This document shows, one piece after another, positions 2,035 through 35,776 of a DNA stretch of 37,035 nt (position 1 is its first letter; the number at the start of each line of letters is the position of its first letter). The translations under genes were made by a program, and so were the position numbers. The notes under the pieces were generated by a model. The model worked only from the letters and a program-made list of their open reading frames with translations, was not told the origin of the DNA and made no database searches. The stretch is from a virus (Duplodnaviria > Caudoviricetes), in IMG/VR virus record IMGVR_UViG_3300008255_000254, positions 1 to 37,035 of that record. One strand, given 5' to 3'.

Positions 2035-2042
2035 GGGACCTC

Positions 2043-2198: not shown

Positions 2199-2199
2199 A

Positions 2200-4352: not shown

Positions 4353-4363
4353 GGTATTTCTCC

Positions 4364-8119: not shown

Positions 8120-8135
8120 CAGAGGTCCTTTGGTT

Positions 8136-10475
8136 TTATCGGAGGGAGTTGGAGGCGTCAGCGGTGGGAGCCCGGAAGCTGCGCACCATCCAGTTTTGCA
8201 GCTCGCTCTGGGTGTCTGCCCAATTCGGGGCTTCACCCGATGCTGCGTCGGTGAGGGCTTCGAGCGACAGGCGACCGAGTTGTGCCTCGGCCATCTTCGC
8301 CGCTTCTTCGCGGGTCACTCGTTGCACCTTCCCTTGCGGGTCCACGTATTCGAGACGTGTTCCGGGAGGCAGCTTCGACCCGAGAACTTCGGCCGTCCGC
8401 TTGACGTTGCGCTGGTAGGTTTGGACCGCAGGCGTGGAGAGGTTGAGGTTCTCCATCCCTTCGGCCAAGCGTCCCGCCTGAATGGCAGTTTCCGCCCGGA
8501 CAATCGGGTCTTCGATCAGGTGCAAGCTGCCCATGACCGAGGTGATGATGTTCCGAGGGTCTCCGCCCTTGCTGAAATAATCGAAGGCTGCGACCCCAAT
8601 GACGGAGCGCGCTGTCCGTTCGATACGCTGTTGCTCGGCTGCTTCTGCCCGGTCAGCTTGGGACTGACGGTAGGCTTCTTCGCCGCGCTCGTGCGCCTGC
8701 AGGCTCTCGAACCACTTGGCCGCTTCGACGTCTGACAAACGCCCCTCTCGGTGCGCCTTGGTGATGTCGATGCGGGTCAGGGGCGGCCCGTTGCCGATCA
8801 GCCGGAGAGCAAAGGCTCCCGAGGTTTCCGTGGAAATCCTCGCGCGCTCCTCGTCCTCGAAAGCGTCCCAACGCTTCACCAGCGCCTCACGCTGTTGCAG
8901 GAGGAGCTGACGTTGTTCGGCATTGGCCGCAAAGCGACCTTCGAGTTCCGGGATGAGCTGCGCCGTCGGGTCCATCGCACGATCCCGCACCGACCGGGGG
9001 AGCCCGTTCGGAGTGTAGGAAGGATCGCCGGGAGGAACCGCGGCAGGCGTCGAGCCGGGTTCTGCACCCATCTTCCGCTCTGCCCATGCAACGAGCTGGC
9101 CCGCATTGCGGACCCCGCTGAACACGGAGCTGTTCGCACGACGCGAGGACCGAGACACGAGGTCGCCAATGTTGGCGTTCGGGTCGGCCTTGAGGACCTT
9201 GAGAGCGTCGCCTTCGCCGAGGAAGTGCATCAGATAGACGGTGGCGTCATTGACGGCCACGCCGTTCTTCTGGAGCTTCTCGACGTTCTGCCGGGTGAAG
9301 GTCTCCATGACCTTGTCCTGCGTGGCTCCGTCCGCGCGCTTGGCGAGGATTTGAGCCTCACTCTCCCCGGTGTCCCCGAAGGTCTGCCGGTAGCTCTGGA
9401 GCCAAGTCCCCTTGAGGAACTGGTAGCGCCCGTAGGCCGAGCTGGTCGCGGCTGCTGCGGTGTCGTTGCCGCTGCTCTCCGCGCTCCGGTTGCGGCCCAT
9501 GTAGTTGCCAATGTCGAAGTCCGCAGGAGCCGGCTGTGCGGCACCTTCGGGGACACTTGCGACACTGGACGGGCCGGGATCGAACGAGACGATCCCCGAG
9601 CGTTCCTCGGGAGGCAGTGAGGCTTCGGCAAGGCCGAGAGCTTGGTCGAGGAGGGCAACGCCTTCCTGATGTCGACCCTGACGCTCCAGCTCGCCCGTGA
9701 TGGACGTGACCGTGTTCAGGTAGGCGGCCGTCACTTGCTCCTGCGGAACCGATGGGGGAACCCGGTCGATCAGCTCGGCAATGTTGACAGGTTCGCCAGA
9801 GAGCACTCGGTTGCGCACCGAGGTCTGGAACAGGTTGAGGGCTTCGCCTTCAAAGCGAGCGGTGATGCGCTGGCCGGCGGCTGCGAGTAGGACAGGGCGG
9901 GATTTCTGAACCTGACCGAGGGCAAGCAGATAGCCGTCCTTGTGGCCCATGTCGATGACTTCGCCGGTTTCCGGGTCCTTCACGAACGAGCCAAAGTATT
10001 CCTTTTCAATCCATTCGGCAGCACTCTTGAGACGACCTTCGAGGGTCGGCTCCTGCTGCTGTTCGAGGAACTCTTGGAACTCCAAGTCCTTTGCGGTCTT
10101 GTGCTCGAACCAACGGGTCTCCGTCTGGGCCATGCCAAGACCCCGGCGGTAGGCTTCGGAGCGACCCATGCGTTCTTCGCTGGTCGAGCCGGTCATGTGG
10201 TCGAGGAGAGCCTGTTCGTAGTTGTCTTCCTCCTCAATCGCGAACTTCGCCTGTGCGGTTCGCTGTGCGTTGCCGAGGCCATCCTCCAGCATCCCGAGGG
10301 ATCGTAGGATGCCTTCTGCTCCGCCGGAGCCGCGACGGGCTGTCCGCATATCGCCGAAGGTTTGGAGTTGGTTCTGCCGAGGATCGACCTCGGGGAGGAT
10401 GCCCTGCCGCCGGTCGACCTTCCGGTCGCCGCGGAGGACCCGCGCTTCGTTTCTTGAAAGGTCGCGGTTTGGCAT
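8136..10475 (-). CDS. Internal virion protein (gp15 position) with lytic transglycosylase-like domain
   Basis: Start MPNRDL by TAATG coupling; AESSGN...SSAYGRYQFLKGTW...YLMHFLG lysozyme-like motifs; synteny. Confidence 0.8.
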   Translation of the reverse strand: MPNRDLSRNEARVLRGDRKVDRRQGILPEVDPRQNQLQTFGDMRTARRGSGGAEGILRSLGMLEDGLGNAQRTAQAKFAIEEEDNYEQALLDHMTGSTSEERMGRSEAYRRGLGMAQTETRWFEHKTAKDLEFQEFLEQQQEPTLEGRLKSAAEWIEKEYFGSFVKDPETGEVIDMGHKDGYLLALGQVQKSRPVLLAAAGQRITARFEGEALNLFQTSVRNRVLSGEPVNIAELIDRVPPSVPQEQVTAAYLNTVTSITGELERQGRHQEGVALLDQALGLAEASLPPEERSGIVSFDPGPSSVASVPEGAAQPAPADFDIGNYMGRNRSAESSGNDTAAAATSSAYGRYQFLKGTWLQSYRQTFGDTGESEAQILAKRADGATQDKVMETFTRQNVEKLQKNGVAVNDATVYLMHFLGEGDALKVLKADPNANIGDLVSRSSRRANSSVFSGVRNAGQLVAWAERKMGAEPGSTPAAVPPGDPSYTPNGLPRSVRDRAMDPTAQLIPELEGRFAANAEQRQLLLQQREALVKRWDAFEDEERARISTETSGAFALRLIGNGPPLTRIDITKAHREGRLSDVEAAKWFESLQAHERGEEAYRQSQADRAEAAEQQRIERTARSVIGVAAFDYFSKGGDPRNIITSVMGSLHLIEDPIVRAETAIQAGRLAEGMENLNLSTPAVQTYQRNVKRTAEVLGSKLPPGTRLEYVDPQGKVQRVTREEAAKMAEAQLGRLSLEALTDAASGEAPNWADTQSELQNWMVRSFRAPTADASNSLR

Positions 10476-10972
10476 TAACCTGCTCCTGCGTTCTGGCTTG
10501 CTTGGGCCTTGTTGATCTTGGCGCCGTTGATGCCGGACCAAGCGTTGAGGCCCGCGCCTGCGAGCTGAAGACCGGCGCCCACGGCGTTGACGTTCTGAAC
10601 TTGCGAGAACATCGAGTTGGCTTCCGCCACGTTGGCGGCGACACGGCTCTCTTGGTTGGCGATGGAGCGGTCGTTCGACATCTCCGCCTGCATGGCGCTA
10701 TCCATCAGTAGGGTGTCGACGGAGCCCGTCAGGGCAAGGCCAGCTTCGCCAGCGGCAGCGCGGACGCGCCCCTGCTCACGGCGGGAGGCCCGCATGGTGT
10801 CGAAGATTTCGGTGGAAGCCTTGCGACGGGCTTCCTCGTTCGTAAACTCAAGCTGCTGGTGGATGGCCCTGTTCTGGGCCTTCGCCGCTTGGCTTTGAGC
10901 AATTAGGCTGTAGCCGGTAGAGGCCACCGCCGTAACGCCTGCGGCGATGGCAAGGCTTACGGGTTCACACAT
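10475..10972 (-). CDS. Internal virion protein B (gp14-like)
   Basis: MCEPVSLAIAAG N-terminus, Ala/Gln-rich, RAAAGEAGLxxxGSV motif; synteny. Confidence 0.8.
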   Translation of the reverse strand: MCEPVSLAIAAGVTAVASTGYSLIAQSQAAKAQNRAIHQQLEFTNEEARRKASTEIFDTMRASRREQGRVRAAAGEAGLALTGSVDTLLMDSAMQAEMSNDRSIANQESRVAANVAEANSMFSQVQNVNAVGAGLQLAGAGLNAWSGINGAKINKAQASQNAGAG

Positions 10973-11456
10973 GGATAGACCTCGCGAATGTGTAGAAGGC
11001 ACGGCGTTCTCGGCCGTGGAAGGGGTGGAGGGAAACAAGCCGGAAGCCGGTCCATTTGAGCCAGCGCATCGAGACCTCGTTTCTCGCGTCGATGTAATTC
11101 CAGAGGAGGTCGTAATCGGCCTGCATCTCATCCATGTAGCGGCGAGAGTGGCGAGCGATTGACAGGGCCTCGTCTTCGATGCCGTCGGTGCCAAGCATCC
11201 ACGCTGCACCCATGCGGGGTAGGGCGAGCGGGGCGGCTCCGAATACGGCGATGGGTTCCCCGGTCTTGTCCGAGGTGATGACCCAACCGTGAGACGAGAT
11301 GCTCACAGATCGGGGGAGAATGTCGTGGATAGGGATTGCCGAGGAGGCGCGAACCTCCTCGACATCCTGTTTCCGCATATTGGCTGCGATGCGGTCAAGC
11401 CACGGCCCCACGGTCTCCCAAGGGGTCTCACGCAGGTCGTGGACTGTTATCGTCAT
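10965..11456 (-). CDS. Internal virion protein A (gp13-like, GNAT-like fold)
   Basis: ATGA coupling; MRKQDVEEV, AWMLGT, LWNYIDARNEVSMRWLKWTGF motifs. Confidence 0.8.
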   Translation of the reverse strand: MTITVHDLRETPWETVGPWLDRIAANMRKQDVEEVRASSAIPIHDILPRSVSISSHGWVITSDKTGEPIAVFGAAPLALPRMGAAWMLGTDGIEDEALSIARHSRRYMDEMQADYDLLWNYIDARNEVSMRWLKWTGFRLVSLHPFHGRERRAFYTFARSIHV

Positions 11457-13618
11457 CGCAATGCTCTGTGCTGGAAGAAGCCCTCCCATTCCGCCGACAC
11501 GAAGGTCGAGGCGACGTGTGTGTCGTTCGTCAGGGCCACGGTGCATTGCGCCGCGTCCCCGAAGACTTGGAAGGAGAACTTGCCGGTGTGATAGGCGGGC
11601 CGTCCAAGCTCCAGCTCCGCAGAGCCAACGACCATGCCGTCGAACGCTGCGAGTTTGGAAGGAACGACCTCGGTGATGGAGGGATCGGTCAGAGCCCCGT
11701 AAGGCGAGACCTCGGCTCGGAAGAAGCCGGTGCCCACATAGTTGACCGTGAAGGTCCGAAGGGTCAGTCGGCCCGTCGAGAGCGGTCGGTTCTGATAGTC
11801 CAGCGGGAATTGCCGCGAGAACTGGAACCGCATCTCATAAGCCTCGCCCGCCGTGATGGTCTCGGCAATCTGACCGGGGACCCGAACGGTCGTGGGGTTC
11901 AGCCACTCGTATCCTGCGGTGTTCACCAGAGCGCCTCCGACAGATGACGCCTTGCCTCGAAGGAGACGGGCGGAGCTCTGTTGGGGAGCGTAGGGGAACG
12001 TGAAGGTCGTCTTGTCCGCCGAGGAGTCGTAGGTCCCGGTGAGGGCGACACGTCGGTCCAGATAGGTCTGCTCGTCCTGCTCTGCTGGCTTGGCTTCCTC
12101 TGCGAGGTTCATGCGTTCAAGCCGGAGGTTTCCACCGTAACGCACGAGAAGGTAGAGATAACCGGCCAGATAGGTCCCAGAGACGACATCACCCGAGAAG
12201 CGCCAGCGGCGCCAAGCGGAGATGACCTTCTCGTTCCCGTTCCAGTAGAACTGATAACAGAAGACGTCCCGGCCGCCGGTCAAGGCAAACAGGGCTTTCA
12301 TGTTCGGAGCCGCGATGAGATGCTCGATGTCCTCGGGGATGAAGTCGGGGACGTGGGCGGTGATTTCAGCCGCCGACAGGCCCTCGCTTCCCGCGAGACG
12401 GGTGTATTCCCAGATGACCGAATAGCCGTTCTGGTTCCCCGCGTAATAGACCTCGGAACCGATGGAGACCGGGCGGACCTTGAGGTTCACCTCGTAGCGC
12501 GTGACGGGGTCGATTGCGACCGAGCTAGGCGTCAGGCCGTCCTCGCCGTTCGTGATGCTGAACTGGACTTGGTCCGCGAACGCCATGATCCCGTCGTTGA
12601 AGGGCAGGGCGTAGTTCAACAGGGCGACGTTGGAGGTGGTGACAGCTACGTCGACGACGTCAGATGCGACTGCGTCGAGGACGGTATTGCGCCAGAAGTT
12701 GCCGAAGTCGCCCGCGCACGAGAACACGACGTTCTCATCGACCAGCAGGCCGAGGCGGTTCTGGTAGAAGAACACGTCCCGGATGGATCGGCCAATGAAG
12801 GTCGGCTCCGGGTTGGTATCAAGACTACCGACACGGCGCGGTGCCCACGAGAAGGGAGCGAACGTGAATGTCCCGTCCCCCTCGCGCACCAGCGCAAACG
12901 GCATGGTGTTCTGGTCGAGGTGGTTACGAAGGCCGTTCGGGACGGTCTCCTCCCACACTGCTCCCACGCGCCGCACGTAGAACGTGGTGAAGCCCGTATC
13001 GACTGATCCAGTGACCTTGTAGATCGAACCATTTGGGGCGTCTGCGGGGAGCTTCTCAACGCTCGTGACTTCGCCGGAGAACGTGCCGGGGCCTTTGTTC
13101 GCGAGATACGTTGCGACCGAACCGGCGAGGACGTCGAACGCGAAGCCGCTGCCAGTGAGGCCGCCAGAGCTCCGTGGGAGCCAGCGGGAGGCTTCGCTGT
13201 CGACCTGTGTTGCGTCCACGGTTGGGGACATCAGACAGGTCTTCTCGGTGTTCACAATGAAGGTGTAATCGGCGACCGTCACTGCCCGGAACTTTCCGCC
13301 AGCCAGATAGGCGAACCCGCCGGGACCATTAACGGTCTTTGCGGAACCGTCGGAGCTGTCGAAGACACGTAGGACGCCGCCGTCGATGACGACGATGTAA
13401 CGCTCGGTCACGTCCCGGTTGATGTGGTGGATAAAGGCGTTCTCGGAGAAGGCTCCGAGGTCTGCCAAGTCCTCCGTCGGGGGCCGCTTGCCGACACCCT
13501 TTGAAAGGATGCCGTGGGTGTTCAGCTCGTCCTCGTTCTGATCCGAGGATCGGAGGATGGCCGGCTGGCGGCTCACGCCGTTGTGGATGGCGGATAGGAC
13601 CCGCTGCCGTAGGCTCAT
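11453..13618 (-). CDS. Tail tubular protein B (nozzle, gp12-like)
   Basis: 721 aa; GVSRQP, GVGKRPPT, WEETV, TMPFALVR, RRVGSLDTNPEPTFIG, FFYQNRLG motifs. Confidence 0.93.
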   Translation of the reverse strand: MSLRQRVLSAIHNGVSRQPAILRSSDQNEDELNTHGILSKGVGKRPPTEDLADLGAFSENAFIHHINRDVTERYIVVIDGGVLRVFDSSDGSAKTVNGPGGFAYLAGGKFRAVTVADYTFIVNTEKTCLMSPTVDATQVDSEASRWLPRSSGGLTGSGFAFDVLAGSVATYLANKGPGTFSGEVTSVEKLPADAPNGSIYKVTGSVDTGFTTFYVRRVGAVWEETVPNGLRNHLDQNTMPFALVREGDGTFTFAPFSWAPRRVGSLDTNPEPTFIGRSIRDVFFYQNRLGLLVDENVVFSCAGDFGNFWRNTVLDAVASDVVDVAVTTSNVALLNYALPFNDGIMAFADQVQFSITNGEDGLTPSSVAIDPVTRYEVNLKVRPVSIGSEVYYAGNQNGYSVIWEYTRLAGSEGLSAAEITAHVPDFIPEDIEHLIAAPNMKALFALTGGRDVFCYQFYWNGNEKVISAWRRWRFSGDVVSGTYLAGYLYLLVRYGGNLRLERMNLAEEAKPAEQDEQTYLDRRVALTGTYDSSADKTTFTFPYAPQQSSARLLRGKASSVGGALVNTAGYEWLNPTTVRVPGQIAETITAGEAYEMRFQFSRQFPLDYQNRPLSTGRLTLRTFTVNYVGTGFFRAEVSPYGALTDPSITEVVPSKLAAFDGMVVGSAELELGRPAYHTGKFSFQVFGDAAQCTVALTNDTHVASTFVSAEWEGFFQHRALR

Positions 13619-14217
13619 CAGTAACTCCGGTTGTTGATGCGGGATGCCATTGAGGCGTTGCCCAGGAACAAGTTGGTCTTGCGGGTCCGACGCTCCTCAC
13701 GCTGCAGGAGAACCCACGCGCGGATTTCGTCGTCCTCCTCGAAGCGGTCGATGATTTGCGAGCCGATGAACTTGCTCTGGAACCGGCGGCCTGCCGAGAT
13801 AGCGATGTAGCTCCGAGCGGCCTCTGGGAGGTCCTCGAAGGTGAAGCCCCACACAACCTCCACCTCGACCGGCGTGGTGAACTCAAAGGCTCCGGCGGTG
13901 CGGTTGTAGAGACGCATGACGCCGCCGGGGTGGCGGCGCTGAACCAGCTCGATTGTCGGGTTCGTGCTTTCAATCCCAAGGGCGTTCGAGGGGATCGCAA
14001 TGAGCCCGTCGATGTCTGGGTTGAGCGTGTATTTGTCGTCCGTGTTGAACGCGAAGCCATGCAGGAGAACCTTGCGGGTCTGGGAGGCTAGGCGCTGCTT
14101 GGCGATGTTGACGTCGGAGATGCCGGTGACGGCAAGGGTGTTGACCGGGGCTTGCCCGATGCTCGCCAACATCTCGTTGACTGCTTCGAGCTCCGTCGTC
14201 GGGGTGATGTCGGGCAT
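13618..14217 (-). CDS. Tail tubular protein A (gp11-like)
   Basis: TELEAVNEMLASIGQAPVNTL, GFAFNT, FEDLPEAARSYI; GGAG RBS before ATG 14217. Confidence 0.93.
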   Translation of the reverse strand: MPDITPTTELEAVNEMLASIGQAPVNTLAVTGISDVNIAKQRLASQTRKVLLHGFAFNTDDKYTLNPDIDGLIAIPSNALGIESTNPTIELVQRRHPGGVMRLYNRTAGAFEFTTPVEVEVVWGFTFEDLPEAARSYIAISAGRRFQSKFIGSQIIDRFEEDDEIRAWVLLQREERRTRKTNLFLGNASMASRINNRSY

Positions 14218-14237
14218 TGGGGAAACTCCGGGAGATG

Positions 14238-14275
14238 AAAAAATGGGCCCCACCTCCCAGAGGAGATGAGGCCCA
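14238..14275 (-). terminator. Intrinsic terminator after capsid gene (T-phi position)
   Basis: UGGGCCUCAUCUCC-loop-GGAGGUGGGGCCCA stem followed by UUUUUU. Confidence 0.85.
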
Positions 14276-14282
14276 AAGCCTA

Positions 14283-15251
14283 TTAGGCCGGGATGGCGCC
14301 AGTGCGGAGCTCGACCGCGCACTTGGTGCGCAGCGGGTCCGTGCCGACCATCATCCGCGAGAGAAGCAGGGTGCCCTGCTTCTCGGGCTGGTCGACGATC
14401 TGGAACGACGGGCGCTGCACGAGAGCCGAGCAGGCCGCCATCGGGGTCCAGACAACGCCACGGGTCGTGCCGAACTTGGCGCGATACTTCGCCGGGATGT
14501 TGGCGTTCGCGCTGTCGTCAGCACCGAACACGCCAGCGGCAATGTTCGACTTGTGGACGTTGATGTCGTCGATGGTGGTGAGCGTCATCGACTTGACGCT
14601 GGCGGTGCCGCCGTTGGTGTCCCGGTTCAGGTTCTTATCGCTGCGAGCGATACGATACCACTGTGCGGGAGCCAGCAAGGCGTGGACCGGCTGCGAGTGG
14701 ATGGGAACGTCCTTGACGTCCATCACTTCCTTCGCCTGCGAGATACCGTCGATCAGGATGTTTGCATCCGCATCGAAGCCGGCGTTCTGCAGCGCACCGC
14801 CGCCTTGGTCGCCAGCGAACAGCGCGGGGCCGCGAGCCGACAACAGCAGGGTGCGAAGGATGTTCGAGTCGTAGTGCTCCGCGAGGAAGCGACCAAGCTC
14901 GGTCGTGTAGGGCTGGCGAACGTCAAAGTGGTTCAGCAGCTCGTCGATGTCCGCGATGAACACGCTCGACACCAGCTTATCGTCAGGGCTGACGATGATT
15001 TCGGTGTGCGGGATCGTGTCTCCGGTGATTTCGGTGCCGGGGGTGTGGTAGCCGCCGGTCGCCTTCCAGATCGCCGGGAAGCGGAACTCTTTGCCCTTCG
15101 ACAGGGTCTTCGACTGATGCTTGTCCATCAGCATCGTGTTCTTCTGGAAGGCCGTGATGACCTCGCCGCCGAACAGGGCCAGCATCAGAGCGTTTACGTC
15201 TGCGCCGCCATTTGCGTCCAAACCGGGGCGGTTCGGAGTGCTATCTGCCAT
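14283..15251 (-). CDS. Major capsid protein (gp10-like)
   Basis: LALFGGEVITAF, GKEFRFP, YHTPG, IADIDELLNHFDVRQPYTTELG; AAGGA RBS. Confidence 0.96.
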   Translation of the reverse strand: MADSTPNRPGLDANGGADVNALMLALFGGEVITAFQKNTMLMDKHQSKTLSKGKEFRFPAIWKATGGYHTPGTEITGDTIPHTEIIVSPDDKLVSSVFIADIDELLNHFDVRQPYTTELGRFLAEHYDSNILRTLLLSARGPALFAGDQGGGALQNAGFDADANILIDGISQAKEVMDVKDVPIHSQPVHALLAPAQWYRIARSDKNLNRDTNGGTASVKSMTLTTIDDINVHKSNIAAGVFGADDSANANIPAKYRAKFGTTRGVVWTPMAACSALVQRPSFQIVDQPEKQGTLLLSRMMVGTDPLRTKCAVELRTGAIPA

Positions 15252-15489
15252 GATATTCCTTAGATACAGTGGGTTGAAGGATGTTGTTGAGCTTCAACCT
15301 TAGACAGCCGGGGCCAGCCTTGGTTATCCCCGAAGGGGCCGAGGGGGCGAGCACGGGAGCTTCGGTGGTAAGCGGATACAGGGTGAGAGCCGCCCCCTGC
15401 GGTGCGCGCGTTGACGAGCCCCCGTCAGGGCTCAAACGCACCTCTCGTAGCTCCCCCGTCAGGGAGCCAGAGGAGAGGGCCATATTCGA
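15252..15489 (-). promoter_or_regulatory. Structured capsid mRNA leader
   Basis: 238-nt intergenic with two hairpins sharing CCCUGACGGGGG, a CCC-UUCG-GGG hairpin and a GGUUGAAG/CUUCAACC hairpin. Confidence 0.55.
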
Positions 15490-16431
15490 TTACTCGAAGG
15501 TGTGTATCGCCCGCGCGAAACGCTGTCCCGGAGCCAGCTCAATGCCGGACGAGAGGCTGCGCTGAACCTTCTCCTGCACCGCTTGGGTATAGGCAGTGTC
15601 GGTTCCGTAGCGACCATCCATCTGTGCCGTGACGAGCTCGTCCATGCTGCGATAGACGTCGCCCGTGGCGCCGGCTTGTCCGCCCTTCGGAGCAACGAGA
15701 CTGCCTTCCGAAGGGTTCGCCTTGGAGAACTTGGAGTAGAGGTCGCGGACAGCGAACTCGCGGAGGCTCGGATTGTCGAGCGCCGTGTTGAAGGCGTCGA
15801 TCCCGGCGTCGTCGAGATTGCGAGAGGCCCACGTAATCATGGCCTCGTAGTTGTCCTTGCCTTCCACGAAGCTGTGGAGCTGCGTGAGCTGCTGCTCCGT
15901 CTGGGCGCGAAGACCCGCGACGTAGAGGTCGGTCATTTCCCGAGGGATGCCGGCCTTCTCCAGAGCTTCGTAGGCTTCTGGGCCGAGCTCTTGGCCGGTC
16001 GCGAACTGTTCACGAGCGAGCTCGATGGCCGACTGCAGGGCGGGGTTCGAGGCGTCGTTCGCCGCGTCTTCGACCTGCTCTGCAACGGTCTTCTCGACCT
16101 TGCCGTCGTTCCGAGCCGGAGGCGTCTCGCCGTCCTGCACGGGCTCCTTCGGTGCCTCACCGCGGCTCTTTTCGAGTTCGGTGTAGCTCTTGAGGAGCGC
16201 CTCGGTGTTCACCTGACCCTTTTCAGCGTCCCAGAACTTCTCGGGGACACCTTCGGGGCGCTGTGGAGCTGCCGGGGTTCCGGCGGGAGGTGCCGGGTTG
16301 TTCGGGTCCGTCTGCTGGATGCCGGTTTCGGCAACAGCAATGGCCGCGCGTTCAGCTTCGTTGAACTGCGGGGTGCCGCTCGGGGCGGCCGGGGTCTCCG
16401 GGCCGCCCTGTGGGATAGTTCCGTCGCTCAT
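15490..16431 (-). CDS. Capsid scaffolding protein (gp9-like)
   Basis: RPEGVPEKFW, LLKSYTELEK, GKDNYEAMITWASRNL, MDGRYGTDTAY; acidic; between portal and capsid. Confidence 0.92.
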   Translation of the reverse strand: MSDGTIPQGGPETPAAPSGTPQFNEAERAAIAVAETGIQQTDPNNPAPPAGTPAAPQRPEGVPEKFWDAEKGQVNTEALLKSYTELEKSRGEAPKEPVQDGETPPARNDGKVEKTVAEQVEDAANDASNPALQSAIELAREQFATGQELGPEAYEALEKAGIPREMTDLYVAGLRAQTEQQLTQLHSFVEGKDNYEAMITWASRNLDDAGIDAFNTALDNPSLREFAVRDLYSKFSKANPSEGSLVAPKGGQAGATGDVYRSMDELVTAQMDGRYGTDTAYTQAVQEKVQRSLSSGIELAPGQRFARAIHTFE

Positions 16432-16655
16432 TAGGTGTAGCTGACGATGACGGTGCCGTTCGCGCTTTCTTCGGCCGTTTCCGAAGCCTTCTTCGGCTCC
16501 GGGCGTTCAGCTTCGGTGTTGTCGATCACGAACGTCTGGTTGATCGTTTCGGTCTCACCGGCCACTTGCGGCGCGGCGGTCGGGACGGCTTCAACCTTGG
16601 CGGGTGCCGAGGTTTCGACCTTCGGCTCTGCGGCCGTCTTCTTTGGGGTGCTCAT
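16431..16655 (-). CDS. Hypothetical protein, 74 aa
   Basis: Fills the portal-scaffold gap, TAATG coupling to scaffold. Confidence 0.7.
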   Translation of the reverse strand: MSTPKKTAAEPKVETSAPAKVEAVPTAAPQVAGETETINQTFVIDNTEAERPEPKKASETAEESANGTVIVSYT

Positions 16656-16658
16656 GGG

Positions 16659-18218
16659 TTATGCTCCGGTTGGGATGGGAGGACCGCCTTCTGCGACCAT
16701 GCCGTCCATCACGCCCTTCGCCACTTGGGGCACTGCGCTCATGGCGGCCTGTTGCGAGGCGGCTGCTTGCTGTTCTTCTTGCTGAACCTCGGGCGACTTG
16801 ATGAGGTCGTCGACCGCGTCGATGCCGTAGCTGTCTGCAAGGCGACGGCCGACCTCTGTGGGGTCGGTGATCTGGGCGAGGATTTGCTCGCCGTAACGAG
16901 CCTTCATATCGTCGAGCCAGCGGTTCAGACGGGTCGCAGCGTGGTTACGTCCAAGGGCCTCGAAGCCAGTCACAATGGTCGGCTTGATGGTCTCTGGCAG
17001 GTTCGGCGCTTGGCCGCTTCGCTGCAGGATGTAGAGGTAACGCTTGATGAGCGGGAGCTGGAGTTCTGCCGAGAGGACCGTGTAGGTCCCGCCGAGCACG
17101 TTTTCGAGCTCCTGCGCCATTGCGCGGATTTCCTCTGCCGTGACCCGCTCCGCGTTACGGACGGTGCCACTCTGGAGCAGGAAGGAGTGCGAGAGGCGAA
17201 GTTCGAGACGTTCGGCGACCGAGGAGGCCACCTGAAAGTCTGCATACTTCTCCATCTGGAGAGCCTTGACCTTGTCCGCGTAGCCGTGGACGTAGTCACC
17301 ATTCTCGGCCTCGTTCAGCTCCTCAATGTCCGTCATCGAATTGGGTTCGACGAGATAGACCACACGGGAAGCCAGAGAGGCGAACTGGATGATCGACTTG
17401 GAGAGGTCCTCCAGCGACATCAAGTCACCAACGTATTCGCTGACGTGAGCGCGGCCATAGTCGCTGCCCGGAACTGCCTGCCACCGCAAAGCGATGAAGG
17501 CCGGGGCGTCCATTGGTGAAGCTCCTTCGGAGTTCGGGACGATGTGGTCGTTGATCTGCTGGTAGTGCCGATACTGGTCGCCCTCACGGAAGACGTGAGT
17601 GTAAAGGTCCACGAGCTGCGTGTTTTCTTCACCCGGCTTCACTTCGACTTTACAGGCCGTCAGGGTCTCCTCATCCAGAGCGGAGGGATAGACCCGCTCG
17701 TGGATCACGGCTTCCAACATCCTCCCACGTTCGTCCCGCAGGACGACATACTGGTCGAGGCGGAAGATGCGCGGGGTTCCTTCGAGAGGCACATTAAGGA
17801 GCGCGTTGCCGGCAACGATGAGGTGCCGAAGCGCCTCCATCATCACGGGGCGAGCCGCGGTGGTTTCGAGCAAGAGGTGGGCCTTGGCGCTGATGCGCGA
17901 CAGGGCCGTCTTCACCTCGGTCAGCTTCTCGCCGAGCTCCTCCGCTGCATCCTCGTGAACCGAGAGACGAGCGAAGTGTTGGTCGGGCGGGAACTGCGTG
18001 ACGAGGAGGTATGAGGCGAGGTTGTTGACGCCACGGGCGCCTAGGCTCTGGTAGGGCTGCGAGAAGCTGGAGTTGCTGTCCTGTCCGTCCTGCGGCACGA
18101 GGCCGGGGATTGTCAGGTCAGAGTTCTCGCGGGCCCGCCGGAGCGCCGTTTGGCGCCCGGTGGATAGCGTATCGAACCGGCTCTTGGCCTTCGGCTCGAT
18201 AGCCTTTTTTTCGGCCAT
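16659..18218 (-). CDS. Portal / head-tail connector (gp8-like)
   Basis: PYQSLGARGVNNLAS, HLIVAGNAL, DYGRAHV, RNAERVTAEEIR, LGGTYTVLSAELQLP. Confidence 0.96.
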   Translation of the reverse strand: MAEKKAIEPKAKSRFDTLSTGRQTALRRARENSDLTIPGLVPQDGQDSNSSFSQPYQSLGARGVNNLASYLLVTQFPPDQHFARLSVHEDAAEELGEKLTEVKTALSRISAKAHLLLETTAARPVMMEALRHLIVAGNALLNVPLEGTPRIFRLDQYVVLRDERGRMLEAVIHERVYPSALDEETLTACKVEVKPGEENTQLVDLYTHVFREGDQYRHYQQINDHIVPNSEGASPMDAPAFIALRWQAVPGSDYGRAHVSEYVGDLMSLEDLSKSIIQFASLASRVVYLVEPNSMTDIEELNEAENGDYVHGYADKVKALQMEKYADFQVASSVAERLELRLSHSFLLQSGTVRNAERVTAEEIRAMAQELENVLGGTYTVLSAELQLPLIKRYLYILQRSGQAPNLPETIKPTIVTGFEALGRNHAATRLNRWLDDMKARYGEQILAQITDPTEVGRRLADSYGIDAVDDLIKSPEVQQEEQQAAASQQAAMSAVPQVAKGVMDGMVAEGGPPIPTGA

Positions 18219-18227
18219 GCTGGTCCT

Positions 18228-18527
18228 TTAATAGCGGTGGATGTTGCGGGGACTGATCCCCCGTCCACCACCTCCGCCACCGGCAACTGGCGGCGGGCGC
18301 GGGATGCCTCCCGGCGGGGTGGAAGCCACCGGGCTCACAGGAACATAGCCCGCCGCAGGTGCGGCAGGAGTTCGACCGGAGCCTTTGGGGATGCGGAGGG
18401 AGGAGCGGCCCGTCCGCATCGAGCGGGTCTTGGGATCAACTCCGTCGAGATAGGAGTTGCGAATGATGGCCGGGTCCTTGGGCTGCGTCTCTGACGGCTT
18501 CGGGATTTTCGGCTTGGGTGGACACAT
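18228..18527 (-). CDS. Small virion-associated protein (gp6.7/7.3 position)
   Basis: MCPPKPKIP start, RTGRSSLRI motif, TGATG coupling, directly before portal. Confidence 0.7.
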   Translation of the reverse strand: MCPPKPKIPKPSETQPKDPAIIRNSYLDGVDPKTRSMRTGRSSLRIPKGSGRTPAAPAAGYVPVSPVASTPPGGIPRPPPVAGGGGGGRGISPRNIHRY

Positions 18528-18718
18528 CAGCTTTTCGCCTTTCGTTCTGCGCTGCGGGCCTTCTGGCCCTTCCAGTGCTTGAGGAAGACCACGAGCTCGC
18601 GCTTGGCGGCTCGGCGCTGGATGGAAATGATTTCGTCGCCCGCTTCGGGGATGACTTCGGGGAACATCTTGTCCAGCTCGTCCACGAGGTCGGCGGACAG
18701 GTAAGGGAACTGGACCAT
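18527..18718 (-). CDS. Hypothetical protein (gp6.5 position), 63 aa
   Basis: GGAG RBS; LSADLVDELDKMFPE...RELVVFLK; synteny. Confidence 0.7.
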   Translation of the reverse strand: MVQFPYLSADLVDELDKMFPEVIPEAGDEIISIQRRAAKRELVVFLKHWKGQKARSAERKAKS

Positions 18719-18733
18719 GAGAGGCTCCGGTGT

Positions 18734-18805
18734 TGGCGAGGGTGGTGGGTAACGCTCCCACGGGGCGAGGTTTTGGAGACCTGCCCGCCACTTAGGCTCA
18801 CCGAC
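18734..18805 (-). tRNA. Degenerate tRNA-Trp(CCA)-like element
   Basis: 72 nt ending in CCA; anticodon arm AGGU-CUCCAAA-ACCU; T-arm GUGGG-AGCGUUA-CCCAC; D-arm GCC-UAAGU-GGC; acceptor 5 of 7 pairs; non-canonical T-loop. Confidence 0.55.
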
Positions 18806-18811
18806 AAAGAT

Positions 18812-18897
18812 GAAAAAATGGGGGCCGCTCAAGCCGACACATGGTCAGCGAGCGGCCCCCTAGGAGACACAATGACAGCAGGAATGTTCTTCCTACC
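18812..18897 (-). ncRNA. Putative antisense small RNA (~86 nt)
   Basis: Starts at predicted promoter +1; 5' hairpin, 16-nt unpaired seed GUCAUUGUGUCUCCUA, terminator hairpin and U6; seed complementary to early-gene translation starts. Confidence 0.55.
18813..18860 (-). terminator. Intrinsic terminator
   Basis: 11-bp perfect stem GGGGGCCGCUC/GAGCGGCCCCC with inner GCUGAC/GUCGGC helix, then AUUUUUU. Confidence 0.8.
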
Positions 18898-18914
18898 AAA
18901 GGGTGGCAGTAATT
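18883..18914 (-). promoter_or_regulatory. Phage RNAP promoter (late), predicted +1 at 18897
   Basis: AATTACTGCCACCCTTT-GGTAGGAAGAACATT; one of six intergenic co-oriented copies. Confidence 0.85.
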
Positions 18915-18918
18915 GGCC

Positions 18919-19749
18919 TCACGGTGTCCACGGCAGGATACGGCCGTCGACGTAGTCGGTGTGCTTGAGGATGCGGGCGAGGTTCACCTGTCGGATCGCG
19001 TCTGCTTCCGTCAAACCTGCCTCCGCAAACGCAGCCACGATAGCCTCCCACCGGGACCCGTAGGTCACGTCGTGTCGGCGGGTCTCGAACTGGCCCTTGC
19101 GGGCTCCGCTTTTGAGCTCGTGCTGGTAGCTCTCACGGACCACGAACTCGTCGAGGATGCGGTCGGCCGCCTTCGGTCCAATACCGGGACAACCGGCGTA
19201 GCCGTCGGTGGTGTCGCCTGCGAGGCCCTGCCAGAGCATGAAACGCTCGGCTAACTCCGGCTCGATTAGGCGGACGCCTTCCTTCTTCCCATCACGGTTC
19301 CGGCAAGGCCGATAGAACCAGCACGGGATCGTCTGCATATCCTTGTCGTCCGAGACAATGATGCGCCTGCCCTCGTGAGGTTCGGTCGCAAGGATGCCCA
19401 TGACATCGTCGGCTTCGAGACGGGGGATGCCCACGGAAGGCCACTCGGCGGCAAGCCATTCCTTGAGCTCATAGAGCTGGACAGGACGCTCGGAGCCGGC
19501 GCGGTTCTGCTTGTAGGTCTGGTCGACCTCCTTACGGAAATTGTCGACCTCGTCGGAGAGACAGACGATAACCTCATCGGCCTTGAGGATCGCCACGAGG
19601 TGCTCGATTTCGTCTTCGACGGCGGCCTTCATCTCGTCGAGGTCAGCCACTTGGCTCGTGACGCCGTCTCCCCAATCATAGTCCCGCTGTTTCGAGGCAG
19701 AGGCTTGATAGGCGAAGATGTCGGCGTCGAGGAGGAGGGCGGTGCTCAT
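18919..19749 (-). CDS. 5'-3' exonuclease (gp6-like)
   Basis: LLLDAD, NFRK...YKQNR, LEADDVMGI, VSDDKDMQTIP, GDTTDGYAGCPGIG, ARIL. Confidence 0.95.
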   Translation of the reverse strand: MSTALLLDADIFAYQASASKQRDYDWGDGVTSQVADLDEMKAAVEDEIEHLVAILKADEVIVCLSDEVDNFRKEVDQTYKQNRAGSERPVQLYELKEWLAAEWPSVGIPRLEADDVMGILATEPHEGRRIIVSDDKDMQTIPCWFYRPCRNRDGKKEGVRLIEPELAERFMLWQGLAGDTTDGYAGCPGIGPKAADRILDEFVVRESYQHELKSGARKGQFETRRHDVTYGSRWEAIVAAFAEAGLTEADAIRQVNLARILKHTDYVDGRILPWTP

Positions 19750-25058: not shown

Positions 25059-25090
25059 AATGTTTCAGCCGTCAAGGGGTGGCAGTAATT
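25059..25090 (-). promoter_or_regulatory. Phage RNAP promoter, predicted +1 at 25073
   Basis: AATTACTGCCACCCCTT-GACGGCTGAAACATT. Confidence 0.85.
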
Positions 25091-30217: not shown

Positions 30218-30249
30218 AATGTTTCATCCCCCAAGGGGTGGCAGTAATT
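30218..30249 (-). promoter_or_regulatory. Phage RNAP promoter, predicted +1 at 30232
   Basis: AATTACTGCCACCCCTT-GGGGGATGAAACATT. Confidence 0.87.
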
Positions 30250-30253
30250 GAGG

Positions 30254-30487
30254 TCAGACGAGGTGGCCTTGGCGGCGCAGCTCGGCGAGGACCTCCTCTG
30301 CGACGTGGTCCCCGATGTCTCGGGCGGCGCGGCGCAGGCGTTCGCCGTGCTCCTGCCGGGTCTCGGCGGGGTAGTCGTAGGGCTCGTCGAACGCACTCCT
30401 AGGCGTCGGCTAGAAGCGGTATGCGTTGTAGGACAGCGGGAGCATCGTGGAGAGGCGACCGCGGTTGTGTTCTACCTTAACCGACAT
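30254..30487 (-). pseudogene. Hypothetical 77-codon gene with in-frame TAG at 30410-30412
   Basis: TGATG-coupled start with GGAGG RBS; frame continues 51 sense codons after the TAG to a TGA 4 nt before the next promoter. Confidence 0.6.
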
Positions 30488-30606
30488 CAGCGGGCCTCCT
30501 TCGAGGAAGCCACGGCGTCGCCAACGCGGACGGTGGTGCCGGTGGTTTCGGCGAGTTGACGGGCGAGGCGCGCACGGGCCTCGGCGGACAGGGTGATGGT
30601 CTTCAT
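30487..30606 (-). CDS. Hypothetical protein, 39 aa
   Basis: GGAG RBS, first ORF after promoter, MKTITLSAEARARLARQL. Confidence 0.6.
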   Translation of the reverse strand: MKTITLSAEARARLARQLAETTGTTVRVGDAVASSKEAR

Positions 30607-30635
30607 GGGTGTGTCTCCGTGAAAATGAGGGCCGG

Positions 30636-30667
30636 AATGTTTCATCCGCCAAGGGGTGGCAGTAATC
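30636..30667 (-). promoter_or_regulatory. Phage RNAP promoter, predicted +1 at 30650
   Basis: GATTACTGCCACCCCTT-GGCGGATGAAACATT, just after RNAP gene. Confidence 0.87.
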
Positions 30668-30701: not shown

Positions 30702-33185
30702 TTATGCGAACGTGTATTGAGCGCCGAGGATTTCGGAGAGGTCGAGGTCTCCGGCGGTCGGCGGGGGTGGCAGTTGCGCGGCGAGTTCTTCGCCGAGCTG
30801 GCTCTTGAGCTCCTCGTAGAACGTCCCGAGCACGTCGCCCGAGTATTGCTCCACGAAGGTCTCGCGCAGCATCCGCGACATTGCGTCGGTGTCCGCTGCA
30901 TGGGTCCCGAAGCTGTCGTGGATCACGGCAAGGTGACGGACGCCTTCCGCCTTCGCCGCCAGTGCCACGGCCTGCAGATGGCAGGCGTCGAGCGAGTGGA
31001 CGAAGTTCGGGGCGACGCCGTTCGCTTGCGCGCGGCCATCCAGCTTCTCGGTTTCGGACTGCACCTTGAGGCGCACACGGGTCCCAGACCAGTGGACGTT
31101 GACGTCCTTGCCGGTGAACACCTTGTATTCCTGCAGGATGGGAAGACCGAGAGGCGTCGTCCACCACAAGGGCAGACCTTCCTCTGCGGCGACCTTCGCA
31201 GCCGAGCGCAGCCAATCCATCGCCACGGCCGCCGAGGAGACAGTCGCAGAGATGGAACTAAATAGGACGTGAGACATCCAAACGGCCGACCGGAAGTTGT
31301 CCGCGCCATTCAGATAGGGAGCCTTACCGGCCGCCTCATTGTCCCGGTCGATTTCCCGAAGGGTCGAGAGGATCATGTCCTGCATCCCGGCGCGGGTCGC
31401 CGAATAGCAGAAGGTCATGGTGGGGCGCTTGGCAATCTTCCGATTGACCTTGCCGCCCTGCCACGGGTTCGGGAACGAGACCTCCTCGCCGGTCGCCTTG
31501 TCGACGTAGGTGATGAAGGTGGTCGCGTCGGCCTCCTCTTGCGCACGTCGCGCCACCTCCGAGTAAACGTCCTGCGGCTTGTCAGCCGGGAGGAGGTTCA
31601 CCGCCGCCCCGCCAGTCCGGTCGCGGAGCATGGCGGAGAAGTGTTGGAGACCCGAGCAGGAACCGTCGAGAGCGATGGGCAGGAACGACACGAACTGCGT
31701 CGGGTCATCTAGCTGCATCGCCCGGTTCAGCTCCACACAGGCCGCAAGGGCGCAGTAGGGGCTGTCGGCGGTGGTCCAGAAGCGTTGCCCGTCGAGCGGG
31801 TTGGCGCCGCTGTCGAGGATGGCGTCGAGGTTCTCCACGACCCACGCGAGGCGGTCGTCGAAGCTGGCCTTGTCCACGCCGAACAGGTTGGCGATGTGGA
31901 TTTGTAGCCAGCGGAACCCTTGGAGTCCGAGAGGCTTACCGTGGGAGAACCGGAGGAGCGCCTTCTGCCAATCGCAGCCTTGCGGCGAGGGGCCGAAAAC
32001 AGGGATCGGATAGACCCGGCCCCGAAAGTCCAGCTCGTGGGGGTAGTAGATTTCCGGCTCGTCCGCGAACTTGCGGGCGACCCAGATGCCTTGATGCACG
32101 GCGAGGCGCGAGGAGACGAGGTCGGCATTGCGCTGATAGACGCTCGCCGCTTCGCGCTTCCACTTGATCCGCGCTTCCTCGTTGGTGTCGATGTCCTCCG
32201 GCTTGGCAGGCACCGGCTCGTCGTGACGCTTCGGGAGCCCGCCGAGCGAGCCGCCTTCGTCCCAGAGATGGGACAATACGTCGAGAACGTCGGTGTTGAT
32301 GGCCCACGGGGTCTCCTGAATGTGGTTCACCGCATCATAGATCGTCTCGATGTCAGCGTTGCGGAGCTCCTCGTGATAGGCCCGGTTGCGCTGCTTGATG
32401 AGCACGTTGTTCGGGCGAGGGGTCAGGTAGCCGCCGTAGGTTGGCGAGCGCCAGCGACGCGGGCGCACCAGCATCGGCATATGGATCGGCTCCAGCAGCG
32501 CGCACCGGGCGTGTTGCTTGTCGAACCATGCGACGAGGTCCTCGGTCGCGCGCAGCTTGTAGATGGTCGTCTTGGCGCGCTTCACCATCTCACGGGCGAA
32601 CAGCCCGGTCGCTTCGATGACGATGTCGATGAGCTTGTCGCCGAGGTTCAGGAGGTCAGCCTGCGACGCCTCGATGCGGACGCCTTCGCTGGCAAACAGC
32701 TTCTTGACCGCGTCCTTGCGCTGGCGTGAATAGCCACGGGCTTCCTGCGCCTTGAGGAGACCGCGGTAGCCCTTGCCGTTCTCCGAACGCAGCGCCTCAT
32801 ATTCGAGGTGCTCGACCACGGCCCCGCCGAGGTTGATGGCGACCGAGGTGAGGTTCTTGTCGGCCATCGCGTGGTTCACGAGGGTCCGCACCGCGAGGTA
32901 GGCGAGCGCGTCGGGTTCCGCGAGGAGACAGTAGGAGACGGCGGAGTGCCGACGTCCTGCCTTGCCGTTGCAAGCCTCGTGGATGAAGGCGGAGATGTGC
33001 TGCGACACAGGCTCGATGCAGAGCTTGAGGAGCTGCTTGCCGGGAGGAAGGTTGGCCTCCTCGTCAGGCGACCCCGCCTCGGGCTTCCACGGGAGCTTGC
33101 GGGCATTGTAGCGGCGTTCGCCGAGGGCGCGGCTGTCGTCTTCGAGTTCGAGCTGGCGGCGGATGCGGTCGCGGATGTTCGTCAT
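30702..33185 (-). CDS. Single-subunit DNA-directed RNA polymerase (T7 gp1-like)
   Basis: 827 aa; DFRGRVY, DGSCSGLQH, RKIAKRPTMTFCY, PNFVHSLDA, IHDSFGTH. Confidence 0.98.
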   Translation of the reverse strand: MTNIRDRIRRQLELEDDSRALGERRYNARKLPWKPEAGSPDEEANLPPGKQLLKLCIEPVSQHISAFIHEACNGKAGRRHSAVSYCLLAEPDALAYLAVRTLVNHAMADKNLTSVAINLGGAVVEHLEYEALRSENGKGYRGLLKAQEARGYSRQRKDAVKKLFASEGVRIEASQADLLNLGDKLIDIVIEATGLFAREMVKRAKTTIYKLRATEDLVAWFDKQHARCALLEPIHMPMLVRPRRWRSPTYGGYLTPRPNNVLIKQRNRAYHEELRNADIETIYDAVNHIQETPWAINTDVLDVLSHLWDEGGSLGGLPKRHDEPVPAKPEDIDTNEEARIKWKREAASVYQRNADLVSSRLAVHQGIWVARKFADEPEIYYPHELDFRGRVYPIPVFGPSPQGCDWQKALLRFSHGKPLGLQGFRWLQIHIANLFGVDKASFDDRLAWVVENLDAILDSGANPLDGQRFWTTADSPYCALAACVELNRAMQLDDPTQFVSFLPIALDGSCSGLQHFSAMLRDRTGGAAVNLLPADKPQDVYSEVARRAQEEADATTFITYVDKATGEEVSFPNPWQGGKVNRKIAKRPTMTFCYSATRAGMQDMILSTLREIDRDNEAAGKAPYLNGADNFRSAVWMSHVLFSSISATVSSAAVAMDWLRSAAKVAAEEGLPLWWTTPLGLPILQEYKVFTGKDVNVHWSGTRVRLKVQSETEKLDGRAQANGVAPNFVHSLDACHLQAVALAAKAEGVRHLAVIHDSFGTHAADTDAMSRMLRETFVEQYSGDVLGTFYEELKSQLGEELAAQLPPPPTAGDLDLSEILGAQYTFA

Positions 33186-33256
33186 TGTGTGTCCTTCCGG
33201 TTCAGGGATTGGGGCCCCGGCAATCGGGGCCCGAGGAGTCAGGCGCAGAGATGGGA

Positions 33257-33286
33257 GTGTTTCTCGGCCGAAGGGCGGCAGTAATC
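33257..33286 (-). promoter_or_regulatory. Phage RNAP promoter upstream of the RNAP gene, predicted +1 at 33269
   Basis: GATTACTGCCGCCCTTC-GGCCGAGAAACAC. Confidence 0.78.
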
Positions 33287-33989
33287 AGTCCAGCCCAAGG
33301 ATGCTGCGGGCCTTGGCGCGGCGGGCGGCCTCTGCGGCGGCGGCTTCTGCGGCCTTGGCTTGAGCCCCGACGGCACGGCGTTTGCCGAGCTCCCGCTTGA
33401 TGGCGGCGCGGACGAACTCGTCCCCGTAGTCCCCGGCAATGATAGCGTGGAGGTTCTCGGTGCCCATCTCGGAGACCCGCTTCACCGCGCCCTCCTTATC
33501 CACCCACTCGGGGTCGAATAGGTCCCGACGGAGCGCGGCGTTCTCCTCACGGAGCGCGGCCATCTCCGCCCCGAGCTCCTTGAGAGCGTCGAGGAAGACC
33601 TGCGGGAGCGGCATCTCCTCGCAGGTGTCGGCGTGGGCCTTGGCTCGGGCCTCCTCGTTCAGGAGGTAGCCTCCCGTCTTGCGGATGGCCGGCAGGACCT
33701 CCCGCGTGACCCAATCTTGGAACTGGCGGGCCTCCGGTTTGTCGGAGCGCATGATGAGCTTGTAGAGGCCGCTCTCGCTAACGGCAGTCGCCCCCGCTCC
33801 CCGCAAACCCACGACGTGAGCGTGGGTAATGATGCGCTTCTCGTCGTCGCCTAGGCGCCCAAGGTGTTTGTGCGTTCCCTTGGTAAGGTCGAGCCCGAGG
33901 CACCGGCAGACGTCAGCCGCGACGAACCACGGGGTCTCGTCGAGGTCGATGGTGCGGAGGCTCTGATCGGCGAATTGAAACGTGTTCAT
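33285..33989 (-). CDS. Bro-N domain protein (antirepressor-like)
   Basis: PWFVAADVC..LGL, VSESGLYKLIMRSDKPEARQFQDWVTREVLPAIRKTGGY. Confidence 0.92.
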   Translation of the reverse strand: MNTFQFADQSLRTIDLDETPWFVAADVCRCLGLDLTKGTHKHLGRLGDDEKRIITHAHVVGLRGAGATAVSESGLYKLIMRSDKPEARQFQDWVTREVLPAIRKTGGYLLNEEARAKAHADTCEEMPLPQVFLDALKELGAEMAALREENAALRRDLFDPEWVDKEGAVKRVSEMGTENLHAIIAGDYGDEFVRAAIKRELGKRRAVGAQAKAAEAAAAEAARRAKARSILGLD

Positions 33990-34020
33990 TGGTGTCTCCT
34001 AAAGTTCTCTTACGGTGGGT

Positions 34021-34052
34021 GATGTTCCATCCCCCGAAGGGTGGCAGTAATC
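34021..34052 (-). promoter_or_regulatory. Phage RNAP promoter, predicted +1 at 34035
   Basis: GATTACTGCCACCCTTC-GGGGGATGGAACATC. Confidence 0.82.
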
Positions 34053-35566: not shown

Positions 35567-35729
35567 GTGCTGCCTCCTTTGCTTTCCTGATAGACGTCTG
35601 GGCCCATTCGAGGGCCTTCGCGTCGCGCTCGTCCCACCTACAATCGTCGAGGAGGTGGAGGCGCACCACGCGCTCCAGTATCCAGACAGGCAGGGTCACG
35701 TTGATGGTGCGGATTGTCTTCTCGGTCAT
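35559..35729 (-). CDS. Hypothetical protein, 56 aa, overlapping integrase start
   Basis: MTEKTIRTINVTLPVWILERVVRLHLLDDCRWDERDAKALEWAQTSIRKAKEAAHG; stop overlaps int ATG region; below ORF-track cutoff. Confidence 0.6.
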   Translation of the reverse strand: MTEKTIRTINVTLPVWILERVVRLHLLDDCRWDERDAKALEWAQTSIRKAKEAAHG

Positions 35730-35776
35730 TGTGTCTTTATCCCTTCTCTGGGTATTTTTGCCGTGGAAGCGACGGC

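Follow-up and report, generated by a model that had tools for sequence, protein, structure and literature searches.

A conserved late promoter-terminator unit in an integrase-bearing T7-like phage and its predicted small RNA antisense to the start of the phage RNA polymerase gene

A short unit located behind the exonuclease gene of an integrase-bearing T7-like phage probably gives rise to an 85-nt antisense RNA, which would be made from the late promoter and would block translation of the phage RNA polymerase (RNAP) and a few other early genes. Judged by sequence comparison, the unit is a real and conserved element, the linker of which co-varies with the start sites of RNAP or of the gene following it. 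No small RNA directed against a T7-type RNAP mRNA was found in the open-licence literature, and a feedback loop of this kind was not found described for T7-like phages.

The window, i.e. the whole stretch of 37,035 nucleotides analyzed here, corresponds to the entire 37-kb virus record IMGVR_UViG_3300008255_000254. Its minus strand displays a T7-type gene order (integrase, Bro-N, RNAP, SSB, RusA, amidase, DNA polymerase, exonuclease, portal, scaffold, capsid and tail tube). Comparison of the RNAP revealed Caulobacter phage S2B and 'Mycobacterium phage jiawei' as the closest isolates (52-53%). The closest prophages, identified by primase (64-67%), reside in Chakrabartia, Sphingomonas and Novosphingobium genomes, suggesting that a sphingomonad is the likely host. 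DNA of the phage occurs in aquifer and groundwater metagenomes, no RNA dataset was among those listed as containing it, and the reads of four DNA runs, three of which span only part of the region, contained no variants in positions 18600-19100. On a portal tree, the jiawei record (L002, OR464703.1) clusters with S2B-like alphaproteobacterial phages, so that its stated host may be wrong.

Folding of the minus strand (18812-18897) resulted in an 8-bp hairpin, 16 free nucleotides and a terminator composed of an 11-bp base and a 6-bp upper stem, followed by A and U6. The folding energy was -45.5 kcal/mol (z -6.38), and equal stability was reached by none of 200 shuffled sequences. All linker positions had a computed unpaired probability of about 0.9 or more. 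The fold thus bears out the order of promoter, hairpin, unpaired 16-nt linker, terminator and U6 given in a preliminary description of this DNA, whereas the RNA length of 86 nt stated there becomes 85 nt (18897-18813). For S2B, the predicted RNA has a length of 87 nt. The promoter 17-mer exists in six window copies, each followed by a G, with PWM scores of 28.3-33.5 compared to 13.1 for the next best site. It shares the AATTA..GG form with the promoters of phage LUZ100, for which a 17-bp motif of this type was mapped by ONT-cappable-seq (PMC10134795). Most phage-promoter transcripts, both from the six window promoters and in relatives, have a small hairpin at their 5′ end, often with a GAAAC/GAACA-type loop at about +8 to +13. 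The 5′ hairpin is therefore generic and nothing special to the predicted 85-nt RNA; perhaps it protects the 5′ end. Hairpins with such loops are reminiscent of boxB, and they could serve as 5′ protection or as an antitermination signal. The traits of the sRNA class that can be read from sequence alone are present, namely an own promoter and an intrinsic terminator bounding a non-coding unit of 50-300 nt. The hairpin-seed-terminator arrangement, earlier taken as the usual layout of trans-acting sRNAs, exists as such, with the restriction that its first hairpin is shared by most phage-promoter transcripts. Rfam returned no family at gathering score in the window, and only chance matches around the element (E 0.36-0.87).

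Table 1. Features of the promoter-to-terminator unit, phage promoters and predicted target sites in the window
Feature	Position	Strand	Basis and remarks
Phage RNAP promoter-like 17-mer (-17 to -1), with no further promoter behind it on the coding strand	18898..18914	-	Six copies in window, PWM; same place and pattern in relatives
Predicted 85-nt small RNA / late-operon leader	18813..18897	-	Fold; layout in 28 distinct phages
5′ hairpin, 8 bp, GAACA loop	18877..18897	-	Fold; common to most phage-promoter transcripts
Single-stranded linker (putative seed), 16 nt, antisense to RBS and AUG of early genes	18861..18876	-	Matches, accessibility, co-variation
Intrinsic terminator-like hairpin (11-bp G+C base) and U6 tract	18813..18860	-	Build similar to terminator after capsid gene
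First late gene 3′ of terminator, 63 aa, phrog_4970	18527..18718	-	Expression would need read-through
Phage promoter immediately 5′ of RNAP (would create a positive loop)	33270..33286	-	PWM
Phage promoter upstream of Bro-N	34036..34052	-	PWM
Phage promoter after RNAP, upstream of 39-aa gene	30651..30667	-	PWM
Phage promoter upstream of 153-aa gene	30233..30249	-	PWM
Phage promoter upstream of DNA polymerase block	25074..25090	-	PWM
Predicted target: RBS and AUG of T7-type RNA polymerase gene (30702-33185)	33181..33195	-	14/15 complementary; cofold -18.2 kcal/mol, rank 1/43; Pfam RNA_pol
Predicted target: RBS and AUG of Bro-N / anti-repressor-like gene (33285-33989)	33986..34001	-	10-nt perfect core and bulge; -17.0 kcal/mol, rank 2/43; PHROG anti-repressor Ant, E 2e-38
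Predicted target: start of 56-aa gene, stop overlapping integrase start	35725..35736	-	12/12; -16.2 kcal/mol, rank 3/43
Weaker predicted target: RBS of 39-aa gene after RNAP (30487-30606)	30610..30618	-	9-nt core; -12.0 kcal/mol with own leader, but rank 11/43

To rank putative targets, the whole predicted 85-nt RNA was cofolded with 43 gene starts of the window. Complementarity of the linker to the starts of RNAP, Bro-N and the 56-aa gene, and a partial match at the 39-aa gene, had been claimed before and were recovered (Table 1); the three former genes also occupied the first three ranks, in agreement with the expectation that early genes should precede other starts. Searching the window for the linker 16-mer with up to 3 mismatches gave a single other match, the RNAP start (33181-33196, 2 mismatches; 0.11 expected). 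The longest perfect linker complements on the coding strand all fell on start sites, with 12 nt at the 56-aa gene, 10 nt each at RNAP and Bro-N and 9 nt at the 39-aa gene. The capsid, portal, gp11 and polA starts had been described as lacking the motif beyond the Shine-Dalgarno core; the longest perfect complement among 14 late starts was 6 nt, and the best late gene reached a cofold energy of -9.2 kcal/mol. Complements of at least 9 nt existed at 4 of 29 starts preceding the unit (hereafter also cassette) with the window linker, whereas none of 24 foreign linkers reached more than 1 such start, while 159 of 3000 shuffled linkers reached even one of these starts at this length. On a longer contig of the same phage (L041), the starts of further early genes are similar, and one of them reaches -19.4 kcal/mol. 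The Bro-N gene appears to be inserted behind a promoter leader (region 33285-34052, minus strand); G006 and G009 have the same TTAGGAG stretch and no gene, and it is at this stretch that the window linker perfectly matches the Bro-N RBS.

A terminator and an upstream spacer follow the exonuclease stop codon in 28 distinct phages, a count that includes the window phage, S2B and jiawei and omits three duplicates. On the portal tree they form three subclades. The promoter pattern was detected by script in 24 of the 28 (3 doubtful), and the remaining four exhibit a similar, slightly longer pattern recognized by eye only. In an alignment of the cassettes, the form of promoter and stems was preserved, and the linkers varied widely in sequence. 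By eye or script, no cassette was detected after the exonuclease gene of more distant T7-like phages (L021-L027, L030, L039, L086, L102, L104, L107, L138 and L152), and none in the exonuclease-capsid stretches read from T7, Lo5R7ANS and Pasto. A degenerate pattern scan of viral contigs produced nine matches, two of them known cassettes and seven chance matches inside a coding region; no RNAP was found in the 5 records checked. In a Novosphingobium prophage (L159:17902-17965), cassette promoter and 5′ hairpin are tandemly duplicated. The terminators of the third subclade (G016, G017, G019, G020, L098) keep TTCCCTTGT in the loop, and a TGGCA-type motif is present in the linker; the functional seed of this subclade may differ from the linker segment used in the comparisons below.

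A usable RNAP start was available for 25 of the 28 phages, in three cases via a second contig assumed to derive from the same phage from matching promoters; gene starts were taken from a heuristic caller. All combinations of 26-nt linkers and RNAP starts were evaluated for pairing, row and column effects were removed and the cognate excess was evaluated by permutation. Cognate RNAP starts paired better than foreign ones in all 25 phages (p 1e-5) as well as in the 15 members of the window subclade (p 1e-5). The excess persisted with p 0.0016 in the 10 genomes that were left when the window, one near twin and the three pairs joined across contigs had been excluded. Neither the S2B-like (p 0.57) nor the third subclade (p 0.33), with n=5 each, showed an RNAP-only signal. 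Within the window subclade, RNAP was the only gene with an excess (mean cognate z -1.84 in 11 genomes versus +0.16 for 143 late gene starts). When 12 independent nearest pairs were considered, the cognate combination was better in 11 by energy; by longest exact match, seven of the same pairs favored the cognate, two tied and three were against it. Co-variation of linker and RNAP start, proposed beforehand as a check, is supported across relatives, with individual genomes that do not fit.

The second recurring target, derived from genome-wide exact matches, is the gene right after RNAP, with 13 nt in L159, 11 nt in G004 and jiawei and 10 nt in two more phages. Of these two targets, only RNAP had been named in advance; the class of next genes was defined after the matches had been seen, so that its statistics are partly circular. 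The mean longest perfect match of cognate versus foreign combinations was 6.16 versus 4.94 for RNAP and 7.04 versus 5.09 for the next gene, compared to 6.56 versus 6.50 for late genes (p 0.41). In whole-RNA cofolding, RNAP or the next gene came first among all starts in 12 of 25 phages and was among the top 3 in 15 (3.7 expected). Five decoy segments displayed no cognate signal on these two targets (p 0.43-0.87). Paired changes were observed between G004 (linker CUCAUGG, target CCAUGAG) and L159 (CUUAUGG, CCAUAAG), and between G005 (CAUUGG, CCAAUG) and G007 (CUUUGG, CCAAAG). The linker of S2B perfectly matches 11 nt over the RNAP RBS. At integrase starts the cognate excess was weak (p 0.017 in 17 genomes, 0.06 in 8). 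RNAP ranked 24/44 in G008, 39/42 in G010 and 39/59 in G011, and the next gene was outside the top 10 in all three; most of the third subclade also misfits in the cofold ranking. G006, G009 and L160 have a 10-11 nt linker match at a late gene start. G-U pairs beside the cores occurred in 8 of 53 flanks (13% expected); they are not enriched and carry no information on pairing at the RNA level.

Taken across the family, it is RNAP, the gene that follows it, or both, that recur as predicted targets, and not Bro-N, which among close relatives was found only in the window phage. The 39-aa gene belongs to a family that is a frequent predicted target of the RNA. Its members, present in 13 of 15 subclade genomes, are arginine-rich peptides, mostly of 36-47 aa, with an 'ARxRLARQxAE' helix. 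As the 39-aa peptide has no Pfam, PHROG or atlas match, a role as arginine-rich RNA-binding protein or antiterminator remains speculation.

The cassette promoter is the last on the coding strand and the only one at or inside the structural module in each of the 13 genomes whose late region is long, and the structural module of the window (172-18718) contains no phage promoter. The capsid genes are located behind one strong terminator, the tail genes behind two, the second of which follows the capsid gene. Since there is no other late promoter, the structural genes need read-through of the cassette terminator and the tail genes also of the second one. Because the unit doubles as leader of the structural operon, output of the predicted RNA would be coupled to late read-through. 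How all structural genes are expressed from one promoter through two strong terminators is a second question raised by this arrangement. Two further elements were noticed in the course of promoter and leader comparison. The capsid leader (~15252-15480, same place in ~20 relatives) harbors a conserved structured element, in which a G+C hairpin is flanked by GAYAAYCC motifs (one or two) and GGACCTTGAGG and a tail rich in CAACCC often come next. The element has no Rfam match and is a candidate for a translational operator or a processing/antitermination signal. Moreover, close to the genome end and past terminase, the opposite strand carries a near-perfect late-type promoter in eight genomes (L041:1854(-), G002, G004, G005, G008, G009, G010 and G011), for the window phage outside the window. 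LUZ19 also has a reverse phage promoter, and the element is possibly related to origin or packaging.

The dependence on a single promoter is compatible with a leader acting exclusively in cis. Its terminator would be a barrier against host or leaky transcription, the 3′ end of the linker would form a transient anti-terminator with the 5′ arm of the terminator, and the short RNA would be a by-product. In the window subclade the linker end can pair with its own terminator arm (cognate p 0.025; 8 of 17 beat 95% of shuffles). However, the alternative hairpin is worth 2-10 kcal/mol compared to 17-52 kcal/mol for the terminator. In the window it lacks significance, as a fraction of 0.21 of the shuffles performed equally well, and neither of the other two subclades has it. 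Co-variation with start sites about 14 kb away is left unexplained, and we regard a purely cis-acting leader as unlikely.

A related model reverses the direction of control: early mRNA would bind the nascent late leader, prevent anti-terminator formation and thereby delay late transcription until the early messages have decayed, possibly combined with mutual silencing. Early starts and the terminator arm are alternative pairing partners of the same linker bases, and expression of the late genes requires read-through. The rival hairpins of 5-7 bp are weak, T7-type RNAPs are fast, and the rival hairpin is missing in S2B and jiawei, although trans complementarity is strong in both (11 and 16 nt, respectively). 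Such mRNA sensing appears decidedly improbable.

The preliminary description had offered a DNA operator as an alternative, and a candidate binding protein exists, as a winged-helix regulator is encoded upstream of int (phrog_9665, E 3e-4; weak HTH_27). Furthermore, MarR-type control of RNAP has been proposed for LUZ100 (PMC10134795). The suggestion fared badly in the comparison of relatives. A cognate signal was obtained for antisense only (p 0.66 for the same sense), the register relative to the AUG shifts from phage to phage (-22..-14 to 0..+6) without retention of a fixed motif, and the motif is not palindromic, which leaves very little room for operator function. Just as little speaks for chance pairing of a pyrimidine-rich spacer with any Shine-Dalgarno sequence. 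Linkers do pair moderately with foreign RNAP starts, and three decoys gave p 0.02-0.035 on the broad set of pre-cassette starts. The cognate-versus-foreign tests, however, control for generic anti-SD pairing and stay significant, and late starts are null, so that this explanation is already largely refuted. A plus-strand mini-gene of 27 codons starting at 18872, despite a good RBS and ATG, is hardly credible, because the ORFs in the 28 cassettes range from 2 to 133 aa without a shared N-terminus, 2 of 28 linkers lack a start codon and several lack one behind the SD-like part, and no plus-strand phage promoter or sigma-70 site is nearby.

Antisense action of the late leader on early mRNAs would proceed as follows. 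Phage RNAP would start transcription at 18897. Part of the transcripts would end at the terminator and accumulate as a stable RNA with a 5′ hairpin and a 3′ U tail; the remaining ones would read through and serve as mRNA of the structural genes. The linker would pair with the RBS and start of early mRNAs and thereby occlude ribosome binding. A phage promoter upstream of RNAP was found in 12 of 16 genomes checked. Self-amplification of RNAP has been proposed for LUZ100 from mapped start sites (PMC10134795). Since RNAP would also drive its own synthesis through such a promoter, the RNA would add a negative loop, for which the positive loop provides a clear purpose. The negative loop would cap synthesis of RNAP, of the anti-repressor and possibly of integrase once late transcription runs. 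Integrase is a possible target because the stop codon of the 56-aa gene overlaps the integrase start, with a weak cognate signal at int. The RNA could also damp or filter leaky RNAP in the lysogen. A scan limited to the sigma-70 type revealed no such site in 18300-19400. The RNA would thus need phage RNAP, which makes it unlikely that it maintains lysogeny by itself. Of the early-to-late or lysogeny switch originally envisaged, the feedback arm is supported by target ranking and co-variation, and the lysogeny arm is unlikely.

T7-like phages are the textbook case of protein-only control by promoter classes and lysozyme. In temperate T7-like phages, RNAP is produced from its own promoter without a known brake, a point raised for LUZ100, and the late-leader RNA would, if true, supply this brake. 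Generalizing from this, an integrase-bearing alphaproteobacterial T7-like clade, perhaps together with LUZ100-type Pseudomonas phages, might run an RNA-only feedback timer, a proposal to which we assign an even chance. One late promoter would deliver both the structural mRNA and an antisense RNA silencing RNAP, anti-repressor and integrase, and the fast-evolving linker would provide a private lineage specificity; in the boldest form, early mRNA would gate late read-through. RNAP, promoter, sRNA and RBS would then constitute a natural part set with lineage-specific pairing that is usable for feedback circuits.

Known phage RNAs share individual properties with the predicted RNA. The small RNA c4 of phages P1 and P7 (77 nt listed) acts in trans on the RBS region of phage mRNA including the anti-repressor; it targets ant mRNA and underlies P1/P7 heteroimmunity (PMC12197685). 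Both RNAs have in common the (here predicted) anti-RBS action, the anti-repressor as target and a specificity differing between related phages. This likeness is confined to the window phage, where the Bro-N/Ant-like start is second in the ranking, and is an analogy, not homology. In contrast to c4, a host-transcribed and processed RNA, the RNA predicted here lacks an Rfam match, would originate from a late promoter of phage RNAP and has phage RNAP as main predicted target.

In terms of construction, the unit resembles the lambdoid pR′-tR′ region with StxS. There, a late promoter is followed by a terminator, the short leader acts in trans and read-through yields late mRNA; pR′ is active in the lysogen and opened by Q, and StxS, a processed and Hfq-binding RNA, acts on stx1B and rpoS (PMC7547250). 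The trait in common is a single late promoter that a terminator separates from the late genes, present in the 13 genomes mentioned above. The differences are the promoter for a single-subunit phage RNAP, the phage's own early genes as predicted targets and the lack of a sigma-70 site in the region scanned. Among 25 proteins searched with Pfam and 14 with PHROGs, several small ones without family, no Q-like antiterminator was found. By analogy, the unit may be a pR′-tR′-type late leader whose short product became a regulator, as did StxS. The unit would work like c4 and is built like StxS, and it is a member of neither. T7 itself has a promoter, phi6.5, at the same genomic position after the exonuclease gene, but it leads straight to the RBS of gene 6.5, and a run of 5 T is absent from the 701 bases read. 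In T7, RNAP is kept in check by lysozyme, which inhibits it (PMC10134795). This feedback is a protein-protein and not an RNA-RNA interaction; the window phage also encodes an amidase.

A covariance model built from 13 subclade members was searched in 33 sources, and the phi7 leader of LUZ100 was the best full-length match outside the clade (E 0.012). This 75-nt unit (L210:20635-20709), annotated only as a hypothetical gene, consists of hairpin, linker and terminator-like stem, and is located before capsid rather than after exonuclease. The phi7 start has been mapped at 20635, and the transcripts listed extend beyond the hairpin as far as 20828 and 21001; the covered text and supplement rows contain neither a transcript end site nor a description of such an RNA at the phi7 leader (PMC10134795). 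For ONT-cappable-seq, a mapping limit of ~80 nt is noted (PMC10914365), and a 75-nt product would fall below it. Between LUZ100 and its relative G021 (L292), 17 linker bases are identical while both stems have changed. RNAP ties for first of 54 starts. A cognate preference was not seen for this pair, as the G021 RNA pairs better with the LUZ100 leader (-16.0) than with its own (-11.9). The LUZ100 unit is a lead only as a putative element of the same kind. While the principle of an anti-RBS small RNA is known from c4, what appears new here is a predicted late-leader RNA directed against the phage's own T7-type RNAP.
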